Below, one piece after another: positions 3,116-64,000 of a DNA stretch of 64,000 nt. Under the pieces are notes generated by a model, which did not search any database, was not told where the DNA came from, and saw only the letters and a program-made list of their open reading frames with translations. How positions within the stretch are numbered: position 1 is the first letter of the stretch; each line of letters starts with the position of its first letter. Source of the DNA: an uncultured Thermodesulfobacteriota bacterium (GTDB taxonomy: Bacteria > Desulfobacterota > GWC2-55-46 > JADFVP01); NCBI GenBank assembly GCA_964472295.1, contig CAYYJQ010000002.1, forward strand, positions 32,074 to 96,073. Reading direction: 5' to 3'. The translations under genes were made by a program, and so were the position numbers.

Positions 3116-3180
3116 GATTAACCCCTGGCTTCAGATATGATAGACACGTTGAGAGCGCCCGGGTATTTCATAAGGGACCT

Positions 3181-3208
3181 CTCCTTAATTCAGGGACGAA
3201 TTAAGGAG
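3181..3208. repeat. hairpin CTCCTTAATTC-AGGGAC-GAATTAAGGAG, member of a motif family also at 59901..59930 and 60042..60069
   Basis: Perfect 11-bp stem. The loop is the reverse complement of the GTCCCG/GTCCCT loops of the copies near the porin gene. It lies about 90 nt 5' of the minus-strand start at 3115. Confidence 0.6.
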
Positions 3209-3294
3209 AAACCAACCTTTAGAGACAGCAAGAGGAGTATGCTTACGAATTAAAGAGTCCTCTATTCATAAAGCCGCCTCCATGCCTTGTTGAA

Positions 3295-5726: not shown

Positions 5727-7973
5727 CTAAGGCTGAATGGTGAATGCAAAGTGCCCTTCATTCCATACCCTTGAGTAAGACCCTACAAAAGCGTTATAGG
5801 TGTAATTAGACGTGCCTGCGCCTAATGGTATATCGTGACTCATTACCTTGCTGATAGACGAATGGGCCTTTATGGTAAGCGGAACAGGATCAATGAACTC
5901 ACCCGCCGCCGGATACTTCGTACCATTGGGCAAGGTTATGTTGGTCCAGTAATCAAAGGTCAGGTCAACATTTGAGTCGTTAGTAAGAGTGAGGAGGTAT
6001 TTTAGCTTGCCTCCCAAGGGGACAGCAACACTTTCGGGTGTCAAGGTCATGGTCACGCTCGGTTCGGTCAGGGTCAGGAGGTTGTCCGCCGCAACATTAT
6101 AGAGCGTCTGCATAATTCCGCTTGGCCACCTTACTGTAAGCGAATCCACTGTCTGGCTTGTGCCAAGGCCAAAGTGTATGATCTGAGAATTTTGCGAAAA
6201 ACGCGAAGCCCCGCCGGTCTGTTGCCTTGTAGCTGTTCTGGCTCCAATAGTTGCCCTGACCGTAGCGCCTACGGAATCACGGTTATCAACCGAGCCCACG
6301 AGTTTGACCTTGAGCCAGTGGTTGAGGTTTCCATTATTGTGATAAAGGAGGTGGGGGCCGAAACTGAAAGGGGCCATGCCGAAACCGTTAGCGACAAAGA
6401 TGTCCATAAAGCCATTATTGTCATAGTCGCCGATAGCGGCGTTCTCTCCCCTGCCGCCCACATTCGCCTCGACGCCGCTTAATGCGGCGACCTCGGTAAA
6501 GGTCTTGTCTCCGTTATTCATGTACAGGGTGTTGGGCGCGTTGAAGATATGGTCGAGATTAACGACATAGAGGTCGAGATACCCGTCATTGTCAAAGTCG
6601 GCCCAGTTCGCCGAGATGCTGACAGAAAGGTCTGCCGTGTTGGAGGCCGCTGATACGTCGGTAAAGGTTCCGTCTCCCATGTTTTCAAAGAGAATATTGG
6701 GGAATAACTTGAGACTGAACATATCGAAGTTAAAGGGCGTAACAGAAGTTATCGCACCGCCGCTCTTGATAATGCCGGTAAAACTCTCGCCAGAACGGGT
6801 AGAAACTGTCGTGCTCCTAAGGTACCACGTCCCGGCCTCTTCCCAGACGTAGTACGCTGTCTCGGCGCCAGGTGTATAGGCGGGTTTACCGTGAACCTCG
6901 GGAGACCATGACGCCACAGTGAAGGGCATGGACGCCGGATGGACCCCGCTTGCGCCGATGTAGACCTGTGAGGGGTCCACACGCACCTGAAAATTAGATA
7001 TGTCAAATGTAACGGCAGTGCCGGTGGTCGTAAAATCTACGCCCTTCTCGTCCCCCCCGAAGACATCGGTCATGAAATATATGCCACTGCCGTCCCATTG
7101 AATGGTGTCATTTTCGGCGCCCCGTGCAAGGTATAGATCCATATCGCCGTCATTGTCATAGTCTCCCCATGTAAAATCCTGGGCGTAGAATTGCCCACCA
7201 AGACCTGCGGCGTCAGTTACGTCCGTGTAAACTCCGCCGCCGTCATTTCGAAAGAGCATTACCCTGTCTCGGGACTGGAGGTAAATGTCCATTAGGTTGT
7301 CATTGTTGTAATCAACGGCAGTGCCCATGATGGCGCCCATGGCGCTCAGGCCAAGAGAGGGGCCCACGTCCGTAAATGTATCGTCTCCGTTGTTCCTCAT
7401 GAGCGTGGAAGGGTATCCGGTAAGTCTCTCACTACAGAGATACAAGTCAAGGCGTCCATCGAGGTCGTAATCAACCCAGAAACCTCCTCTTGACCGGGCG
7501 TGCGGCACGTCCAGACCAGCAGTAACGGCAATCTCCTCGAAGAGGCCTGTGCCGAGGTTTTTGTAAAGCTTGTTACGGCCCCCACCCTGTGACCGGTTAC
7601 CCCCCTGGGCCTGAAAAAGGTCTTCAAAACCATCGTTGTTGTAGTCGCCCCAGACCGCGCCGTGAAAGTCGCCCACAGGGACGATACCGTAACTATCGGC
7701 CACGTTCTGAAAGGTAAGGTCACCAAGGTTCATAAAGAGCGCTGGCGGGGTCTGCACGTCGGCATGTTGCAACGAATAGTGGTGATTCCCGATATATATG
7801 TCCTCGAGGCCGTCGTTGTTTACATCTCCCCAGGAGACTCCCCATGTGGGTGATACCTGGCTTACTCCTGCCTGGGCCGACACCTCTGTAAAAGAGGTCT
7901 GCGCCGAGGCCTGACCGCTGAACACACTTAAAGAAAGAATAATAATCGCCAGTATTGGAATAATTTTTTTCAT
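5727..7973 (-). CDS. secreted FG-GAP/VCBS-repeat protein with C-terminal ASPIC/UnbV domain (CRTAC1-like)
   Basis: Repeated DYNNDGFEDLF, DYDLDGRLDLYL, DFDNDGYLDLYVVN and DYDNNGFMDIFVANG Ca-binding FG-GAP motifs. An UnbV/ASPIC-like tail reads VGATVRATIG...SLTVRWPSG. The ORF extends to 8015, but the start is likely the Met at 7973, which begins the signal peptide MKKIIPILAIIILSLSVFSGQASA. It abuts the downstream gene with a 23-nt gap, so they are co-transcribed. Confidence 0.75.
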   Translation of the reverse strand: MKKIIPILAIIILSLSVFSGQASAQTSFTEVSAQAGVSQVSPTWGVSWGDVNNDGLEDIYIGNHHYSLQHADVQTPPALFMNLGDLTFQNVADSYGIVPVGDFHGAVWGDYNNDGFEDLFQAQGGNRSQGGGRNKLYKNLGTGLFEEIAVTAGLDVPHARSRGGFWVDYDLDGRLDLYLCSERLTGYPSTLMRNNGDDTFTDVGPSLGLSAMGAIMGTAVDYNNDNLMDIYLQSRDRVMLFRNDGGGVYTDVTDAAGLGGQFYAQDFTWGDYDNDGDMDLYLARGAENDTIQWDGSGIYFMTDVFGGDEKGVDFTTTGTAVTFDISNFQVRVDPSQVYIGASGVHPASMPFTVASWSPEVHGKPAYTPGAETAYYVWEEAGTWYLRSTTVSTRSGESFTGIIKSGGAITSVTPFNFDMFSLKLFPNILFENMGDGTFTDVSAASNTADLSVSISANWADFDNDGYLDLYVVNLDHIFNAPNTLYMNNGDKTFTEVAALSGVEANVGGRGENAAIGDYDNNGFMDIFVANGFGMAPFSFGPHLLYHNNGNLNHWLKVKLVGSVDNRDSVGATVRATIGARTATRQQTGGASRFSQNSQIIHFGLGTSQTVDSLTVRWPSGIMQTLYNVAADNLLTLTEPSVTMTLTPESVAVPLGGKLKYLLTLTNDSNVDLTFDYWTNITLPNGTKYPAAGEFIDPVPLTIKAHSSISKVMSHDIPLGAGTSNYTYNAFVGSYSRVWNEGHFAFTIQP

Positions 7974-46117: not shown

Positions 46118-47214
46118 CCAGGACCCCCCCACTCGTTAGCATCATTATCATACACTATGGAGACGCGGGCGTGCTCGGCGAGTGCCTCGCCTCGCTAAGG
46201 TCCATAAAATACCCTGATGTAGAGTTCATCGTCCTCTCCAACTCCCCGCGAGACAGCCTCCTTGATGCCATAATCTCCGCTCACCCAGACAAAAAATTCA
46301 TCTTTACAGAGACCAACCTCGGTTATGCGGGAGGTTGCAACAGGGCCGTGGAGGCGGCCCGTGGAAAGTACGTCTTCATACTCAATAACGACGTAACCCT
46401 TGACTCCGACGCTGTTTCGCCCCTTCTGAAGGTATTGGAGGCAGACGGCAACATAGCCCTTGCCCAGCCAAAGATACTCTCCATGAGTGAGCCGGAGCGC
46501 TTTGAGTACTCCGGGGCCGCTGGAGGGCTCATGGACAGATACGGCTATCCCTTTGCCGCGGGAAGGATTTTCAATGATATAGAGCGTGACACCGGCCAGT
46601 ACGAAGAACCAAGAGAGATATTCTGGGCCTCAGGGGCCGCCCTCTTCGCAAGAAGAGACGTTATAACCAGGGCCGGCCTAATGGACGAGAGTTTCTTTGC
46701 CTACATGGAAGAAATCGACCTTGCCTGGCGCGTCCACCTAATGGGATACAAGGTCGTATACGTGCCAGGGGCGCGAATCTTTCACCTCGGGAGCCCCAAC
46801 CTGGACAGAAAAAGCGCCCGGCACCTCTACCTTAACCACAGGAACAACCTCGTCATGGTCCTCAAAAACTACTCACTTGCCTCGCTCCTTCGTACCCTCC
46901 CCCCAAGACTCGCACTCGAAGGCGCCACCATGCTATATGGCCTTGTACGCGAAAACCCCCTCAGGGCAAAGGCCATCATAAGGGCCATGCTGAACGTAAC
47001 TGGAAACATCCTAAGCATATTAAAGGAGAGAAAAAAGGCGCAGGCCATGAGGAAAGTCGGAGACGACGTAATACTCAAGAGGATGTATCACGGCTCCATA
47101 GCGGTCGAGTATTTCTTGAGAAAAAAAAGGACCATAAAAGAAATACCCGGTGCCGCGCCGCGGCCTTATGTGGATAGAAAAAACAAGAGAGGGAAAATAA
47201 AAGACAAAAGATAA
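46114..47214 (+). CDS. GT2-family glycosyltransferase (Glyco_tranf_2_3-like)
   Basis: VSIIIIHYGDAGVLGECLASL...NLGYAGGCNRA...ILNNDVTLD. The last 20 codons are Lys-rich and are encoded by a purine-rich stretch that merges into repeat element A, so the true stop may be uncertain. Confidence 0.75.
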   Translation: MTRTPPLVSIIIIHYGDAGVLGECLASLRSIKYPDVEFIVLSNSPRDSLLDAIISAHPDKKFIFTETNLGYAGGCNRAVEAARGKYVFILNNDVTLDSDAVSPLLKVLEADGNIALAQPKILSMSEPERFEYSGAAGGLMDRYGYPFAAGRIFNDIERDTGQYEEPREIFWASGAALFARRDVITRAGLMDESFFAYMEEIDLAWRVHLMGYKVVYVPGARIFHLGSPNLDRKSARHLYLNHRNNLVMVLKNYSLASLLRTLPPRLALEGATMLYGLVRENPLRAKAIIRAMLNVTGNILSILKERKKAQAMRKVGDDVILKRMYHGSIAVEYFLRKKRTIKEIPGAAPRPYVDRKNKRGKIKDKR

Positions 47215-47221
47215 AAAAACC

Positions 47222-47380
47222 TCCCAATTTCTTTTAGAAAAAAGAAAGTCTTTTGATTGGGCGGCGAAGCCCATCTCAATTATTTGGTCAATACGCATGA
47301 CAGGCAAATTTTGCCAGAAAGAAAGCGCGTCAAAGAAAACCAATAGTGGAGTGGGCACTGCCCACCAAAAAAAAGAAGAA
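47222..47380. repeat. intergenic repeat element, copy A (truncated; ncRNA / MITE-like candidate)
   Basis: T-tract/A-tract palindrome TTTCTTTTAGAAAAAAGAAAG (47227..47250). Core GTCAAAGAAAACCA (47329..47342). Hairpin GTGGGCACTGCCCAC, then an A-rich tail. Confidence 0.7.
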
Positions 47381-47419
47381 AAAAAGGAGAGGCCCGCGCC
47401 CCCAAAGGGGACGCGGGCC
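47366..47419 (-). terminator. rho-independent terminator after the DUF2249-hemerythrin gene, embedded in repeat element A
   Basis: Stem GGCCCGCG/CGCGGGCC enclosing CCCC-AAA-GGGG, followed on the minus strand by CTCTCCTTTTTTTCTTCTTTTTTTT. Confidence 0.6.
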
Positions 47420-47446
47420 GGGGTGTACAACACAAAACAAAGGCCT

Positions 47447-49659: not shown

Positions 49660-49885
49660 ATATTTCCCCTTTCTTTTTGGAAAAAGAAAGTTTTTTATTC
49701 AGGCGGCCATCTCCCTCAGGATTTCTTGGACACACCGTATGATATGCACGCTTTATCAGGAAGAAACCGCGTCAAAGAAAACCAAAAAATTTGTAGTAGT
49801 GGGGTGTGCCCCCAAAAGAAAAAAGTTCTCGTAGGATGGGTGGAGCGTGTGCGAAACCCAACAACTCAAAAGATAAAAAGACAGT
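49660..49885. repeat. intergenic repeat element, copy B (full length)
   Basis: Palindrome CTTTCTTTTTGGAAAAAGAAAG (49668..49692). Core GTCAAAGAAAACCA (49771..49784). Hairpin GGGGTGTGCCCC. Second core AGGATGGG...GCGAAACCCAACAA (49831..49865). Confidence 0.7.
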
Positions 49886-49906
49886 AGTCCCATGGCCCAA
49901 GGCCAT
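49860..49906 (-). terminator. candidate terminator after thiE, embedded in repeat element B
   Basis: Stem ATGGCC-CAA-GGCCAT, followed on the minus strand by GGGACTACTGTCTTTTTATCTTTT. Confidence 0.4.
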
Positions 49907-53205: not shown

Positions 53206-53235
53206 CACACACCTATATTTGCCTAAATAATAGGC

Positions 53236-53264
53236 ATTATAACACGGTATTTTCCAGAAGACAA
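53236..53264 (-). promoter_or_regulatory. sigma-70-like promoter for the NtrB-like kinase / NtrC-like regulator operon
   Basis: The minus strand reads TTGTCT-17 nt-TATAAT, about 30 nt 5' of the AGGTG/ATG at 53205. Confidence 0.45.
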
Positions 53265-53387
53265 GGTAATGAAAAGTGAAACGCCTACAGCCGGACCTGC
53301 GCGGCCACGGCACCCGGCGCGGCAAAAGGGGAGTGAAAGTCCCTGGTCCTCGGCATAAAGGGAGCGCCCAATACCGGTTTTCTTTGT

Positions 53388-53417
53388 CTTACTTTCTTTT
53401 TTCAAAAAGAAAGTAAG
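53388..53417. repeat. 30-bp perfect palindrome CTTACTTTCTTTTT-TC-AAAAAGAAAGTAAG (partial relative of elements A-C)
   Basis: Same arm sequence (CTTTCTTTT / AAAAGAAAG) as the palindromes opening elements A, B and C. It is followed by GGAAAACCAAGG and the nirB terminator hairpin. Confidence 0.6.
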
Positions 53418-53459
53418 GAAAACCAAGGGGGGCGAGGGGGCTCAAGGCCCCTCGCCCCC
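53395..53459 (-). terminator. rho-independent terminator after nirB
   Basis: 12-bp GC stem GGGGGCGAGGGG/CCCCTCGCCCCC with an 8-nt loop, followed on the minus strand by CTTGGTTTTCCTTACTTTCTTTTT. Confidence 0.6.
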
Positions 53460-53470
53460 ACTTCCCCCCC

Positions 53471-59857: not shown

Positions 59858-59897
59858 CTTGTCTCCTCTTCTTGCCCCGGTTTTTTATCTTGAGGAA

Positions 59898-60212
59898 CCT
59901 CTCTTTAATCCGTCCCGGAATTAAGGAGAGACGGGAAAGAAAAAAACGCTGTTTTTCTTTCCCTCACATTTTCAAGAACTTACAGTTATAGAAAATCTCA
60001 ACACGTCCCGGCGTTGCTGGAACATCTGAATTAAGGAAGCTCTGAATAATTCGTCCCTGAATTATTCAGAGACGAAAAAGAAAAAACGCGGTTTTTCTTT
60101 TTCTCACATTTTCAATAACTTACAGTTATCGAAAATGGCAACACGTCCATGTGTTGCTGGAAAGTCTGAATTAATCAGACTTTCCTTAATCAGACTTTCC
60201 TTTCTTATCCCG
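59898..60212. repeat. tandem 139-bp direct repeat (2 body copies, 3 hairpin modules) in the leader of the porin-glnK-amt operon
   Basis: Unit 1 starts at 59935 (GAAAGAAAAAAACGCTGTTTTTCTTTCC...) and unit 2 at 60074 (GAAAAAGAAAAAACGCGGTTTTTCTTTTTC...). The units contain ACTTACAGTTAT(A/C)GAAAAT and GCAACAC-N6-GTGTTGC. The hairpin modules lie at 59901..59930, 60042..60069 and 60164..60200. Confidence 0.7.
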
Positions 60213-61320: not shown

Positions 61321-62829
61321 TCAACCTTGCCGCGGTCTCCTGCCCCAGATGTCCTTTTTAGCCCTGCCCCCTCCTGGCGCCGCCTTTTTCATGGCAAGTT
61401 CGTATAGTTCCATGTACCTCTCTGCTGAACGCGACCACGAAAAGTCCTCGCTCATGGCCCTGGCCTGAAGTTCACGCCACTCTTCCCTCTTCCTGAAGAC
61501 TTCCACGGCCCTTCCAACTGCCTCTATAAGGGCGCCCGTGGAGTATCGCCTGAACTTGAAGCCCGTGGGCCGGGGCTCGTTTCCATAGTCCCTTACAGTG
61601 TCGTCAAGGCCGCCCGTAGCCCTGACAACAGGTATGGTCCCGTACTTCTGACTGTATATCTGGTTAAGACCGCAGGGCTCGAACTTCGAGGGCATGATAA
61701 ATATGTCGCTCCCCGCCTCCACGAGGTGGGCAAGGTTGTTGTCAAAACCCGTCCTGAGCGCCGCCCTGCCAGGGTGTCTTTCGCAGGCTCGGCCAAGGCG
61801 GGCCTTGGTCCTGCTCTCGCCCGAGCCAAGAATGGCAAGGCTGATGCCCTGCTTCATAAGCCCGTCCATGGCCCTTATGACAAGGTCTATGCCCTTCTGC
61901 GAAGTTAGCCTCGTAACCATCCCTGCGACCAGCCCATGGCCCTCCTCCCTGAGCTCAAATTCCTTCAATAGGGCGCTGCGGCACACGGCCTTGCCGCTCA
62001 AATCCACCTTCGAGTACCGCGCCGGGATAAGGGGGTCCACGGCAGGGTCCCACTCATTATAATCAATGCCGTTAAGAACACCGAAAAGGTCGTCACTGCG
62101 TATCTTGTAAAGCCCCTCAAGGCCATAGCCACACCGCGGGGTCTTTAGCTCCCTGCAGAACCCGGGGCTCACGGTAGTGAGTACGTCCGAGAAGACAAGA
62201 CCTGCCTTCAAGAGACTTATTCTCCCCCAGAACTCAATGCCCTGCGGCGTAAAGAGCCTGTGGCTGACTCCAAGAAGGCTGTAGTCCTCTGAAGAGAAGA
62301 GCCCCTGAAATGCGCTGTTGTGCACCGTAAAGAGCGTGCCAGTGCCCCTGAAGGCAACGTCCCCCCTGTAAAGATTCTTAATGTATAGCGGGACAAGGCC
62401 TGTCTGCCAGTCATTGGCGTGCACCACCCCGGGCCTGAGCCCAAGGGCACAGACCGCCTCGAGCACTGCCCTTGAAAAAAGCGTGAACCGCTCAAGGTTA
62501 TCAAAGTAATCCCTCTCAGGGGTGCCGTAAAGAAAAGACCTGTCAAAGTACTCGTCACAGCTTATAAAATACGTCTTTACCGCCGCACCGCCTGCCCTGT
62601 AGACCCCGGCCCTGATCATCCGCCGCCCAAGGGGTACCACCACCTCAAGGCCCGTGTCCCTTATCTCAAGCCCCCTGGAGAGGGTCTCCCTGTAAAGGGG
62701 TAAAAAGAGCGTAACGTCAGCCCCCTCCCCCTTCATGGCCGCGGGCAGGGCCCCGGCCACGTCGCCGAGCCCGCCTGTCTTTGAAAAAGGAGCGGCCTCG
62801 GAAGATACGAATATTACACTCAGAGCCAT
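61321..62829 (-). CDS. glgA: glycogen synthase
   Basis: MALSVIFVSSEAAPFSKTGGLGDV (KTGGL) plus a GT-B C-domain. Confidence 0.85.
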   Translation of the reverse strand: MALSVIFVSSEAAPFSKTGGLGDVAGALPAAMKGEGADVTLFLPLYRETLSRGLEIRDTGLEVVVPLGRRMIRAGVYRAGGAAVKTYFISCDEYFDRSFLYGTPERDYFDNLERFTLFSRAVLEAVCALGLRPGVVHANDWQTGLVPLYIKNLYRGDVAFRGTGTLFTVHNSAFQGLFSSEDYSLLGVSHRLFTPQGIEFWGRISLLKAGLVFSDVLTTVSPGFCRELKTPRCGYGLEGLYKIRSDDLFGVLNGIDYNEWDPAVDPLIPARYSKVDLSGKAVCRSALLKEFELREEGHGLVAGMVTRLTSQKGIDLVIRAMDGLMKQGISLAILGSGESRTKARLGRACERHPGRAALRTGFDNNLAHLVEAGSDIFIMPSKFEPCGLNQIYSQKYGTIPVVRATGGLDDTVRDYGNEPRPTGFKFRRYSTGALIEAVGRAVEVFRKREEWRELQARAMSEDFSWSRSAERYMELYELAMKKAAPGGGRAKKDIWGRRPRQG

Positions 62830-62925
62830 GACGAAAACTTAACAAAAAAAAACCATGAGGGCAAGACATATGAGGAGAGGAGAAAAGGGATAAAATAAAA
62901 AAAGGGGAAGAAACAAAGGGGGAAT

Positions 62926-63044
62926 GGGCGGGCTTCGCCCGCAAAGAGATAGAATAGGAAAGAAGGGGTGAAGCGGGCGGGCTTCGCCCAAAGAGGCCAA
63001 AGAGAGACAAAAAGAGGATAATGGGTGGGCGGGCTTCGCCCGCA
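62926..63044. repeat. three regularly spaced GCGGGC-TTCG-GCCCGC hairpins/inverted repeats inside a roughly 220-nt polypurine tract
   Basis: GGGCGGGCTTCGCCCGC at 62926..62942, 62973..62989 (variant) and 63028..63044, with about 50-nt spacing. The plus strand at 62840..63056 is almost devoid of C and T outside the hairpins. Confidence 0.65.
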
Positions 63045-63057
63045 AAGAAAAAGACTT

Positions 63058-63260
63058 CAAACTTTCTTTTAGAAAAAGGAAAGTTTTTTGGCTGGGTTGC
63101 TCTCTACCTCTGGCTTTTTGGAAGTTAAATCAAGAAAGGTTAGTCTGCCACAAAAAGAAATTGTCAAAGAAAACCAATACCAATGGCCTTCGGCCATTGG
63201 AAATAACTTGCAGGATGGGCGAAGCACAGCGAAACCCAACAAGAAGCACAGAAGAGAAAG
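63058..63260. repeat. intergenic repeat element, copy C (full length)
   Basis: Palindrome CTTTCTTTTAGAAAAAGGAAAG (63062..63085). Core GTCAAAGAAAACCA (63163..63176). Hairpin CCAATGGCC-TTCG-GGCCATTGG. Second core AGGATGGG...GCGAAACCCAACAA (63211..63243). Confidence 0.7.
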
Positions 63261-63264
63261 AAGC

Positions 63265-63303
63265 GGCAAGACCCTGTCTTTGCCTTCCCCTCCTTTTTGT
63301 GTT
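63265..63303 (+). terminator. plus-strand rho-independent terminator at the 3' end of repeat element C
   Basis: GGCAAGAC-CCT-GTCTTTGCC followed by TTCCCCTCCTTTTTGTGTT. No plus-strand CDS lies upstream, since glgA is on the minus strand. Confidence 0.45.
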
Positions 63304-63342
63304 AAAAAAAGGTAAGGGAAAAAAACAGGAAATGGATAAAAG

Positions 63343-64000
63343 ATGTTCATAAAGACACTTAACGACGTGCAGGCCGAGGCCGCCACCTTCGGCGACGGCC
63401 CCATACTCGTACTTGCCGGGGCCGGGAGCGGAAAGACGCGTGTGCTTACCTCGCGCGTGGCCTGGCTCATGAAAGAGCGCGGAGTACCGGCCCGCCGCAT
63501 ACTTGCCGTAACCTTTACCAACAAGGCCGCCGGAGAGATGCGCTCCCGTCTCGCCTCGCTCCTTGGAGGGGCGGCAAAAGACCTCTGGCTCGGCACCTTT
63601 CACAGCATTGGCCTCCGCATACTAAAGGAACAGGCAGGCCCCGGGCGCGCGGGAATGAGCGTCTACGCCGAGGACGAGCAGATAGCCCTCATAAAGAAGA
63701 TACTAAAGGAACTAAACCTTGGCGACAAGGCCATGACGCCAAAGTCCATAGCCTGGAAGATCTCCCGCGCCAAGAACGAACTCATGGACCCCGAGGCCCT
63801 CCTGGCCTCTTCCCACGATTTTCTCACCGAGCGCCTCTACAAGATATACAGCCTATACCAGAAGCGTCTTCGCGAGATGAACGCCTATGACTTTGGAGAC
63901 CTCATCGCCGAGCCCGTGCGTATCCTTGAGCGCAATCCCGAAGTCCTGAAAAGGTACCACGAACAGATCCACTATATCCTTGTAGATGAGTACCAGGACA
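63343..64000 (+). CDS. UvrD/PcrA/Rep-family DNA helicase, 5' part (continues past window end)
   Basis: Not in the ORF track because there is no stop. The ATG at 63343 gives MFIKTLNDVQAEAATFGDGPILVLAGAGSGKTRVLTSRVAWL...ILVDEYQD. Confidence 0.8.
   Translation, partial: MFIKTLNDVQAEAATFGDGPILVLAGAGSGKTRVLTSRVAWLMKERGVPARRILAVTFTNKAAGEMRSRLASLLGGAAKDLWLGTFHSIGLRILKEQAGPGRAGMSVYAEDEQIALIKKILKELNLGDKAMTPKSIAWKISRAKNELMDPEALLASSHDFLTERLYKIYSLYQKRLREMNAYDFGDLIAEPVRILERNPEVLKRYHEQIHYILVDEYQD

Follow-up and report, generated by a model that had tools for sequence, protein, structure and literature searches.

A Hairpin-Bearing Purine Tract between glgA and uvrD Is the Variable Arm of a Modular Intergenic Repeat in Uncultured Thermodesulfobacteriota

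Introduction

The spacer between glgA and a divergent uvrD/pcrA-like helicase gene in an uncultured Thermodesulfobacteriota bacterium raises the question of whether a long polypurine tract with three GC-rich hairpins, lying directly upstream of a glycogen gene, serves the control of that gene or belongs to something else. The locus is part of a 64-kb stretch of genomic DNA, referred to here as the window, whose numbering is used throughout unless a relative is named. A preliminary description of the tract, which placed it at 62840-63056, offered three possibilities: a small RNA rich in GGA that sequesters CsrA/RsmA, an array bound cooperatively by a repressor, or a part of a larger element that continues into an adjoining repeat, C. 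The last of these is borne out here. The tract is the upstream, variable arm of copy C of a lineage-restricted, modular, non-coding element, and the same hairpins precede the same downstream modules at unrelated loci.

Results

A Multi-Copy Intergenic Element Family

The DNA analyzed consists of the window and ~170 kb from contigs of relatives that encode GlgA and GT2 homologs; the comparison of lineages, designated below by L numbers, covers ~230 kb from these lineages. The spacer spans 513 nt (62830-63342), with glgA on one side (61321-62829, minus strand) and the uvrD/pcrA-like gene on the other (ATG at 63343, plus strand). Element copy C occupies 62865-63279 within it, ~415 bp located between the -35 boxes of the putative, conserved divergent promoters of these two genes.

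The modules of a full element follow one another in a fixed order on a fixed strand. Zero to three units, each consisting of a GC hairpin with a C-TTC-G triloop and an A/G linker, come first; they are followed by an AU palindrome, CTTTCTTTT-NGAA-AAAAGAAAG, an optional segment of ~79 nt which distinguishes a long from a short form, and a box, CAAAGAAAACCA. The element ends either with a second GC hairpin or with one to three units of ~87 nt, each of which begins with the box. Palindrome and box occur together four times in the window, at 47227 (A), 49669 (B), and 63062 (C) on the plus strand and at 53413 (D) on the minus strand; copy A extends over 47227-47440, copy B over 49669-49900, and copy D, which is without the 79-nt segment, over 53470-53330 (minus strand). 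Relatives carry further copies at L035 2525, 12269, and 19603, L038 3529, L039 5820, L041 7316, and L042 8598. An nhmmer profile of palindrome and box gave 13 strong short-form matches (E values of 4e-19 to 5e-15) at 10 loci in at least five lineages, and the long form is represented by four copies (A, B, and C in the window and one in L004). The lineages of the window, L031/L039, L035/L041, L037, L038, L040, and L042 carry ~1 element per 8-16 kb; the profile found no copy in L033 (21.5 kb) or L043 (17.5 kb). Palindrome and box are nearly invariant across lineages with GlgA identities of only 68-82%. It is the repeated modules on either side that differ in number: the hairpin unit is absent from copies A and D and from the L035 copies, present once in B and L040, twice in L031 and L004, and three times in window copy C and L037, and the box unit occurs three times in tandem in L035 12269 and L038 and twice in L039 and L011 (85 nt apart in L011).

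A wider scan with the pattern GAAAGT-N70-90-GTCAAAGAAAACCAA was run against 185,579 species genomes and metagenome contigs. The species genomes yielded 10 loci, two of which are true copies (L004 and L011, both metagenome-assembled genomes of Thermodesulfobacteriota), and the metagenome contigs yielded 18 loci with the same pattern, all of them chance matches. The L011 element is of the short form. The L004 locus carries a full long-form copy after an unrelated gene, between two unrelated plus-strand genes, in which the stop codon is followed by a purine linker, a degenerate hairpin, another purine linker, GCGGGCTTCGCCCGC, 15 nt, the palindrome, 79 nt, the box, and a hairpin. GCGGGCTTCGCCCGC thus precedes the AU palindrome in L004 within the range of 15-18 nt, and a GC hairpin is also present in L040 at site B. 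The preliminary description had called for a motif search: the 15-mer GGGCGGGCTTCGCCC itself has exactly three copies in the window, all in the tract (shuffles give a mean of 0.41 matches with two mismatches allowed), the GC hairpin recurs with the element in L004 and L040, and matches to the 15-mer with at most two mismatches are confined to such elements in the window and ten lineage loci scanned. The hairpin unit therefore belongs to the element as a module, since it travels with palindrome and box to unrelated loci.

Rfam 15 had no match at gathering score anywhere in the window, and E-value searches of 62780-63400 (E <= 10) and of the tandem box array of L035 brought up only sub-threshold chance matches; a literature search for the box sequence found no relevant paper that contains it. 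The element is a previously undescribed multi-copy intergenic repeat family of some uncultured Thermodesulfobacteriota.

Nearly all copies are intergenic. At site A (47212-47248), the palindrome touches or runs into the stop codon of a gene for a GT2 glycosyltransferase. The final codons of this gene are part of the repeat in L042 (8598-8641), and L041 has a second, degenerate palindrome within the end of the GT2 gene (7268-7340).

Organization of Copy C

Read along the plus strand, copy C begins with purine linker 0 (62865-62927; GACATATGAGGAGAGGAGAAAAGGGATAAAATAAAAAAAGGGGAAGAAACAAAGGGGGAATGG), a 29-nt part of which is gone in L031 and which is unalignable with L037, where the corresponding sequence is equally purine-rich. 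Hairpin 1, GCGGGC-TTC-GCCCGC, lies at 62928-62942; L037 has GCGGGC-TTC-GCCCAC in its place, and L031 is without the whole 47-nt unit. Linker 1 (62943-62976) leads to the truncated hairpin 2 (62977-62989), in which GCGGGC-TTC-GCCC is followed by AA and 4-5 bp are left; it is truncated alike in L031 and degenerate in L037 (GCGACATTCGGCCTG). Linker 2 (62990-63028) is followed by hairpin 3 (63029-63043), again GCGGGC-TTC-GCCCGC, which ends 18 nt upstream of the AU palindrome and is identical in L031 and L004.

The AU palindrome of copy C, CTTTCTTTT-AGAA-AAAGGAAAG (in full CTTTCTTTTAGAAAAAGGAAAG), covers 63062-63083 and is the most conserved module of the family; a run of six T follows at 63084-63089. 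The long-form insert between palindrome and box (63084-63160, ~76-79 nt) is homologous in A, B, and L004 and absent from the L031 and L037 orthologs. The box, GTCAAAGAAAACCAA, lies at 63163-63177 and is invariant among copies A, B, and C. After it come the post-box hairpin CCAATGGCC-TTC-GGCCATTGG (63180-63200), which on the minus strand is followed by TATTGGTTTTCTTTG and is terminator-like in that reading, a purine-rich tail with GGATGGGCGAAGCACAGCGAAACCCAACAA (63201-63264) that is common to copy B (49851-49864), and a hairpin GGCAAGAC-CCT-GTCTTTGCC (63265-63308) that overlaps the putative uvrD/pcrA promoter. All of these modules are given as they read on the plus strand.

Hairpins with a Fixed Triloop and Compensated Stems

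The three copies of GGGCGGGCTTCGCCC start at 62926, 62975, and 63027 on the plus strand, that is, 49 and 52 nt apart. This agrees with the spacing of about 50 nt described previously and with the first of the positions given then, and corrects the other two (62973 and 63028). A polypurine tract with three hairpins is real, except that the first ~25 nt of the interval assigned to it are the putative glgA core promoter, and the hairpins themselves differ from those described. They had been taken for three identical GCGGGC-TTCG-GCCCGC inverted repeats with a UUCG tetraloop. The actual palindrome, GCGGGC-TTC-GCCCGC, is 15 nt long, its 6-bp stem closing a loop of 3 nt; minimum-free-energy and centroid folds from ViennaRNA agree on the 6-bp stem with a UUC triloop, at -11.8 kcal/mol as RNA and -7.7 kcal/mol as DNA, and a triloop is formed on either strand. 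A C(UUCG)G tetraloop was accordingly rejected, as GCGGGC-UUC-GCCCGC folds with a 3-nt loop. Nor are the copies identical: the middle one lacks its 3' GC and can form only a GGGC-TTC-GCCC stem or a 5-bp alternative in another register. The tract hairpins are copies of one ~35-nt module, two intact and one decayed, whose conserved portion spans just ~29-35 nt (66-93% identical over 29 nt); Tandem Repeats Finder reported no clean tandem array and did not detect the 50-nt period.

Several stems have changed on both sides at once. In L037, hairpin 3 reads GCGGCC-TTC-GGCCGC, a compensatory exchange of G-C for C-G; its counterpart in L040 is lengthened to CTGCGCGGGC-TTC-GCCCGCGCAG; and the post-box hairpin has the compensatory variants CCAGCGGCCC-TTC-GGGCCGCTGG in L037 and CCGGCGGCCC-TTC-GGGCCGCCGG in L040. 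The TTC loop is kept throughout these stem changes in the L037 and L040 alignments, which together with the compensated stems argues for selection on folding. The 231 kb scanned contain 10 GC hairpins with a TTC/GAA triloop on a stem of 6 bp or more; every one is part of the element family and has TTC on the strand that runs from palindrome to box. Pairing is thus maintained by compensatory change, with loop and orientation fixed. The stem of copy B differs, TGGAC-TGC-GTCCA, and the other strand of it reads C-GCA-G.

The minus-strand loops of the family read C-GAA-G, in the context GCGAAGC in the three tract hairpins and CCGAAGG in the post-box hairpin. Triloops of the d(GNA) type closed by C-G, as in the GCGAAGC and CCGAAGG mini-hairpins, are exceptionally stable as DNA (PMC13037366, PMC3201870). 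Where stem pairs are mismatched (the L031 hairpin CCGGGC..GCCCAA, window hairpin 2, and L037 hairpin 1), the plus strand would have C.A and the minus strand U.G. These two features, the d(GNA)-type loops and the U.G mismatches, mildly favor folding of the minus strand, whether as DNA or as RNA.

Occupied and Empty Orthologous Sites

Synteny of glgA and uvrD is kept in all relatives examined, so that the spacer can be compared directly among them. The window (513 nt) has three hairpin units and the long form. L031 (GlgA 81% identical) has a spacer of 363 nt with two hairpin units and a short-form core, the palindrome being followed directly by TTTGACAAAGAAAACC, and L037 (GlgA 82%) has 440 nt with three units, the middle one degenerate, and the short form. 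The spacers of L033 (GlgA 71%, 228 nt), L035/L036 (68%, 214 nt), and L038 (71%, 200 nt) have none: tract, hairpins, and palindrome are absent. Site C is therefore occupied in three lineages and empty in four.

A three-way alignment resolves the differences among the occupied sites into discrete blocks. The additional unit of the window relative to L031 is a 47-nt block between AAGGGG direct repeats, accompanied by a 29-nt purine indel; a 76-nt long-form segment of the window is an indel relative to both L031 and L037; and the hairpins of L037 are spaced at 47 and 60 bp. At the strain level, the L001 spacer is identical to that of the window and the L002 spacer differs by one single-nucleotide polymorphism, and variation in unit copy number was not found between these strains.

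The other sites show a similar pattern. At site B, the window has a long-form and L040 a short-form copy, L039 retains only a degenerate, palindrome-like remnant, and L041, L042, and L043 have no copy. Four lineages carry a copy at site A; L043 has none there. Site D lies between a nitrite/sulfite-reductase-like gene and a histidine kinase gene, and the copy found there in L035/L041 runs in the opposite direction to that of the window and L031 (L035 19340-19700 vs. window 53330-53470).

Putative Promoters of glgA and uvrD

The gene downstream of the tract on the minus strand encodes GlgA, as judged by thousands of homologs, the closest named ones from Thermodesulfobacteriota, and by an N-terminus, MALSVIFVSSEAAPFSKTGGLGDV, typical for GlgA. 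Its ATG lies at 62827-62829 (minus strand) with an in-frame TAA 9 nt upstream and is not preceded by a Shine-Dalgarno sequence; GlgA homology and sequence thus confirm an earlier statement that the tract is the 5' flank of glgA and that this signal is missing. Six lineages (the window, L031, L037, L033, L035, and L038) share an upstream layout of TTGCCC (TTGTGC in L033)-N17/18-TAA(G/A)TT-N6-ATG. In the window, this putative core promoter occupies 62836-62864 (minus strand), with a -35 box TTGCCC at 62864-62859, a 17-nt spacer, a -10 box TAAGTT at 62841-62836, and 6 nt to the A of the ATG. On this layout, the glgA mRNA is probably leaderless, starting at the A of the ATG, which would explain the missing Shine-Dalgarno sequence, and the position of the conserved promoter next to the ATG places the tract upstream of the promoter and not in a leader.

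On the other side of the element, a block of the form TTGCCW-17-TAAAAA with an upstream TG (-35 box TTGCCT at 63280-63285, TGtTAAAAA at 63300-63308) is kept in L031 and L037, and TGTGTTAAA is also found in L033, L035, and L038; we infer this block to be the uvrD/pcrA promoter. Judged from the conserved sequences, element C is likely to be part of neither the glgA nor the uvrD mRNA. The tract is not needed for the glgA-uvrD arrangement.

A promoter of the Escherichia coli type occurs elsewhere in the window, TTGTCT-17-TATAAT at 53264-53236. This promoter (53220-53264, minus strand) precedes an operon of a PAS histidine kinase and a sigma-54 response regulator, and its -10 box adjoins a perfect, operator-like palindrome, TGCCTATTATTTAGGCA, that is kept in L031 and L035.

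Purine Linkers and Spacer Reading Frames

Purines make up 86% of the linkers within 62865-63061 (A 52-54%, G 31-34%) and 76% of 62840-63056 as a whole; nowhere else in the window is a purine content of at least 85% over 60 nt reached. Linker purine content lies at 80-88% in the window, L031, and L037, and is 88% in L037 though the sequence there is unalignable with that of the window; (GAAA)n runs are present in the L037 linkers. The richness in GGA and GGGA ascribed to the tract reflects its base composition: GGA occurs 7 times vs. 10.0 +/- 2.2 in composition shuffles, A.GGA once vs. 4.0, and AGGA and GGGA are likewise not above expectation.

Minus-strand open reading frames (ORFs) across the tract had been dismissed as artefacts, rightly so, as they have no Pfam match and are broken in the orthologs by indels that are not multiples of three. 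Public gene callers put ORFs of 69-93 aa on the glgA-uvrD spacer (L001 9480-9761, L031 9677-9886, and L037 1836-2054). The calls differ in strand between assemblies; in L001 the ORF covers element C and the start of uvrD, and in L031 and L037 it runs through the hairpin and purine tract. These ORFs are probably spurious, because the calls are mutually inconsistent and the ORFs of the window's spacer have no Pfam match.

Other Repeats and Discarded Candidates

The window holds repeats of other kinds. A 99-nt segment is repeated in tandem at 59936-60034 and 60076-60174 (140-nt spacing, 86% identical), and the ortholog in L031 lacks the entire 59900-60200 block. Another family of hairpin repeats, CTCTCCTTAATTC...GAATTAAGGAGAG, unrelated to the element C family, is found at 3168-3212, 59888-59932, and 60029-60073.

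A number of further identities were considered for the tract and the core and set aside. A clustered regularly interspaced short palindromic repeat (CRISPR) array would have at least three near-identical repeats of 28-37 nt and unique spacers of similar length; here, the only Rfam hit, CRISPR-DR28, reaches 23.7 bits where the gathering score is 35, the units recur every 49-52 nt, and purines alone make up the spacers. A G-quadruplex would be limited to four G-runs around hairpin 1, which L037 and L004 do not share. An intrinsic terminator has a U-run directly after a GC-rich stem; no tract hairpin was called as one on either strand, and the post-box hairpin alone was, on the minus strand. A sigma-54 site (GG-N10-GC), sought by eye in the core and the units, was met only at spacings of 9, 11, or 13. 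Small ORFs (MGFNPLNFPY.. and MNFNPLNLPY.. in L035, MGEAQRNP.. in C) have a G-run that abuts the ATGGGC... start with no spacing, and they stop at codon 3 in L031 (ATG GGC TAA) and are out of frame in L011. Tandem minus-strand small RNA genes, with the hairpin and U-rich box as terminator, would require a promoter in each 87-nt unit, in which no acceptable -35/-10 pair is found.

Discussion

Possible Roles of the Tract

The question of what the hairpins do is separate from that of what they belong to. On balance, we consider it rather probable that the array is a structural module of the modular repeat, present here in three units and with no dedicated role in glgA control. The array changes by gain and loss of whole units at the AAGGGG direct repeats and by slippage within the purine linkers. 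On this reading, the hairpin would be a module through which the element itself works as a folded single strand, and the array between glgA and uvrD would amount to a spacer, or to structure-prone DNA, between two promoters.

Several observations weigh against this. The spacers of the window and L031 are 95% identical over 360 alignable nt, against 78.6% for glgA and 61% for its third codon positions, and the element at site D is 87.5% identical between the same two lineages, against 78-83% in the flanking genes. A neutral or parasitic repeat should show less conservation than this, and the sequence itself could have a function here. As evidence on the strand, the C.A/U.G mismatches are slender, representing just two or three independent events in decaying copies. 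The sigma-70 scan (9-of-12) called no promoter on either strand of 62500-63600, and the glgA and uvrD promoters are read from conserved hexamers. The wide DNA scans gave just two true relatives, the lineage DNA examined amounting to ~230 kb. Furthermore, the element is not demonstrably a miniature element of the kind mobilized by a transposase (MITE): neither a transposase nor target duplications nor terminal inverted repeats were found for it; the flanking inverted arms are 14-19 nt of low complexity, 74-86% complementary (62894-62912/63285-63303), and the empty sites are too diverged to fix its ends. With respect to the first of these points, the identity between window and L031 peaks at 91-95% over 62900-63400, and the block (62870-63400) takes in the initial ~60 nt of uvrD. 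Its simpler reading seems to be a short, recent recombination tract, because L037 is equally distant in glgA (78.8% identical) and its spacer is only ~80% identical to that of the window.

The conservation is the ground for another reading, to which we give a modest chance: that palindrome, box, and hairpin units form a selected, functional element, a clade-specific new class of single-stranded DNA signal or structured RNA. In DNA form, it could serve some protein as a mini-hairpin array in priming, recombination, or mobilization; in RNA form, it could have a role at gene ends or between promoters; and the glgA-uvrD copy may be under strong constraint, with 95% identity set against 61% at third codon positions.

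The remaining explanations assign the tract a more specific role, or none, and we regard each as unlikely. A plus-strand structured RNA, whose A/G linkers between hairpins would bind or titrate CsrA or the distal face of Hfq as a small RNA here and as a 3' untranslated region element elsewhere, retains a small chance. Most copies are co-oriented with the gene upstream (window D, L031-D, L035 12269, L011, L004, and L041 site A), the plus strand folds like beads on a string (z = -3.1) with purine-only linkers unable to self-pair, the window and L031 are highly conserved in sequence, and the family contains ARGGAUGG motifs (CAAGGATGG in copy B and the L031 tail, CAGGATGG in the copy C tail). The palindrome and T6 at the end of the tract in copy C (63062-63089), seen earlier as a plus-strand terminator, would suit such a transcript as well, but the T-run that would complete the terminator is missing from both element-bearing orthologs, L031 and L037. 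No promoter-like site was called upstream by the sigma-70 scan, Rfam has no match to CsrB, RsmX, RsmY, RsmZ, or other families, GGA, AGGA, and A.GGA stand at or below compositional expectation with UUC and not GGA in the loops, the stem mismatches are C.A on this strand, the linker sequence is not conserved in L037, and the tract is absent from four sister lineages; on these grounds, the proposal of a CsrA/RsmA sponge finds no support. A tblastn search with E. coli and Bacillus subtilis CsrA found nothing below E = 1.7 in 172 kb of partial genomes. Transcription of the other strand has a slimmer chance. It would produce a pyrimidine-rich RNA or a long glgA leader whose GAA-looped hairpins stabilize, pause, or terminate transcription that comes in from the uvrD side, insulating the glgA promoter, and would accord with the U.G pairing of degenerate stems, with the terminator-like call on the post-box hairpin and TATTGGTTTTCTTTG, with a C/U-rich run after each GC hairpin, and with a minus-strand fold at z = -3.7. 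The tract hairpins, however, are followed by C-rich sequence, with U-runs only 10-15 nt further on, and the scan did not call them as terminators; to their right, it found no promoter on the minus strand, most other copies would lie antisense to their neighbors, and the conserved -10 and -35 boxes beside the ATG argue that glgA starts at its ATG.

The two other explanations dispense with a transcript. Three perfect 6+3+6 palindromes of 15 bp at 49 and 52 bp, about five helical turns apart, between two divergent promoters and in a spacer that is highly conserved as a whole between the window and L031, suggested a duplex-DNA operator array, on which a dimeric factor would regulate glgA and/or uvrD cooperatively. 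We think this very improbable, and the earlier proposal of a repressor array likewise finds no support: half of the middle site is lost in both L031 and the window, no site overlaps either promoter (about -100 to -210 relative to the putative glgA start and -250 to -390 relative to uvrD), their number and spacing vary (two in L031; 47 and 60 bp in L037), they are missing from L033, L035, and L038 despite the same promoters there, the same palindrome stands at unrelated loci (L004 and L040), and the compensatory stem change in L037 is a signature of folding and not of base-specific recognition of the duplex. A neutral, low-complexity by-product, in which slippage-prone purine DNA has trapped duplicated hairpins with no selection on the array, fits the unit indels at short direct repeats, the (GAAA)n runs in L037, the decayed middle copy, the absence from sister lineages, and the lack of a clean tandem array in Tandem Repeats Finder. 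It sits poorly with compensatory stem changes around an invariant loop, with an orientation fixed in 10 of 10 hairpins, with the retention of hairpins 1 and 3 across lineages whose glgA genes are only ~79% identical as DNA, and with a purine content kept at 80-88% despite sequence turnover, and its chance is accordingly slight.

Comparison with Known Repeats and Hairpins

The reading of the array as a structural module of the repeat also bears on where the element might be placed among known systems. It appears closest in kind to the modular interspersed repeats such as BOX and BIME/REP, a likeness of kind with no claim to membership in the BOX, REP, or ERIC families. The BOX elements of Streptococcus pneumoniae, treated alongside the repeats RUP and SPRITE (Croucher et al. 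2011, PMC3049150), consist of boxA, a variable number of boxB, and boxC. Like BOX, the element described here is small, non-coding, multi-copy, and intergenic, with strong predicted secondary structure; it has a patchy, lineage-restricted spread with occupied and empty orthologous sites and a slower turnover than insertion sequence elements, and it can enter gene ends, as the palindrome at the stop codon of site A does. Both have a module of variable copy number: boxB is present 0-8 times, and here the hairpin unit is present 0-3 times and the box unit 1-3 times. The element differs from BOX in its phylum and its motifs, and in its near-invariant AU palindrome with a 13-nt box and its strand-asymmetric purine linkers. 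From a purely parasitic repeat, it differs in being more conserved than the flanking genes between two lineages.

REP/BIME (PU) sequences and REPINs of enterobacteria are short, GC-rich extragenic palindromes, often just 3' of genes and clustered with variable linkers. They are mobilized by RAYT (Y1) transposases and act as folded single strands, either as stabilizers of mRNA 3' ends or as single-stranded DNA substrates of the Y1 transposase. In the element described here, by contrast, the hairpins are perfect, in direct and not alternating orientation, and separated by purine linkers of 30-40 nt; their flanks share no GTAG-like tetranucleotide, and the copy number of the 15-mer is small so far. 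No RAYT gene was seen in the small part of the genomes examined.

The Csr-type small RNAs CsrB and RsmX, RsmY, and RsmZ sequester CsrA through many GGA motifs, mostly in hairpin loops, and are transcribed as units of their own, each from its own promoter to a Rho-independent terminator. The tract recalls them in its beads-on-a-string hairpins with purine-rich single strands and in the glycogen gene next to it, and departs from them in that its GGA is neither enriched nor placed in loops, in having no promoter, conserved terminator, or Rfam match, and in its absence from sister lineages. A last parallel concerns the DNA mini-hairpins d(GCGAAGC) and d(CCGAAGG), known from the phage G4 origin, the ssiA priming signal, and the promoters of the phage N4 virion RNA polymerase (PMC13037366, PMC3201870). 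The minus strand of the family hairpins shares their C-GAA-G loops, or C-GCA-G in copy B; the known examples, however, are single functional hairpins in single-stranded replicons, whereas those described here are chromosomal and repeated.

Implications

For the biology of glycogen synthesis in this lineage, the analysis removes a tempting though unsupported link to a Csr-type sponge RNA. In its place, it adds a well-delimited repeat family to a phylum for which none seems to have been catalogued, with an unusual combination of traits: a near-invariant AU palindrome and box, hairpins of unvarying loop and orientation, and strand-asymmetric purine linkers. The conserved, leaderless-type promoter of glgA is a testable by-product of the comparison. 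If the family is not functional, it would still serve as a marker for typing strains and lineages and as a caution against the spurious ORFs that gene callers annotate across it; if its conservation reflects function, it would offer a handle on a system of protein and nucleic acid in these bacteria.

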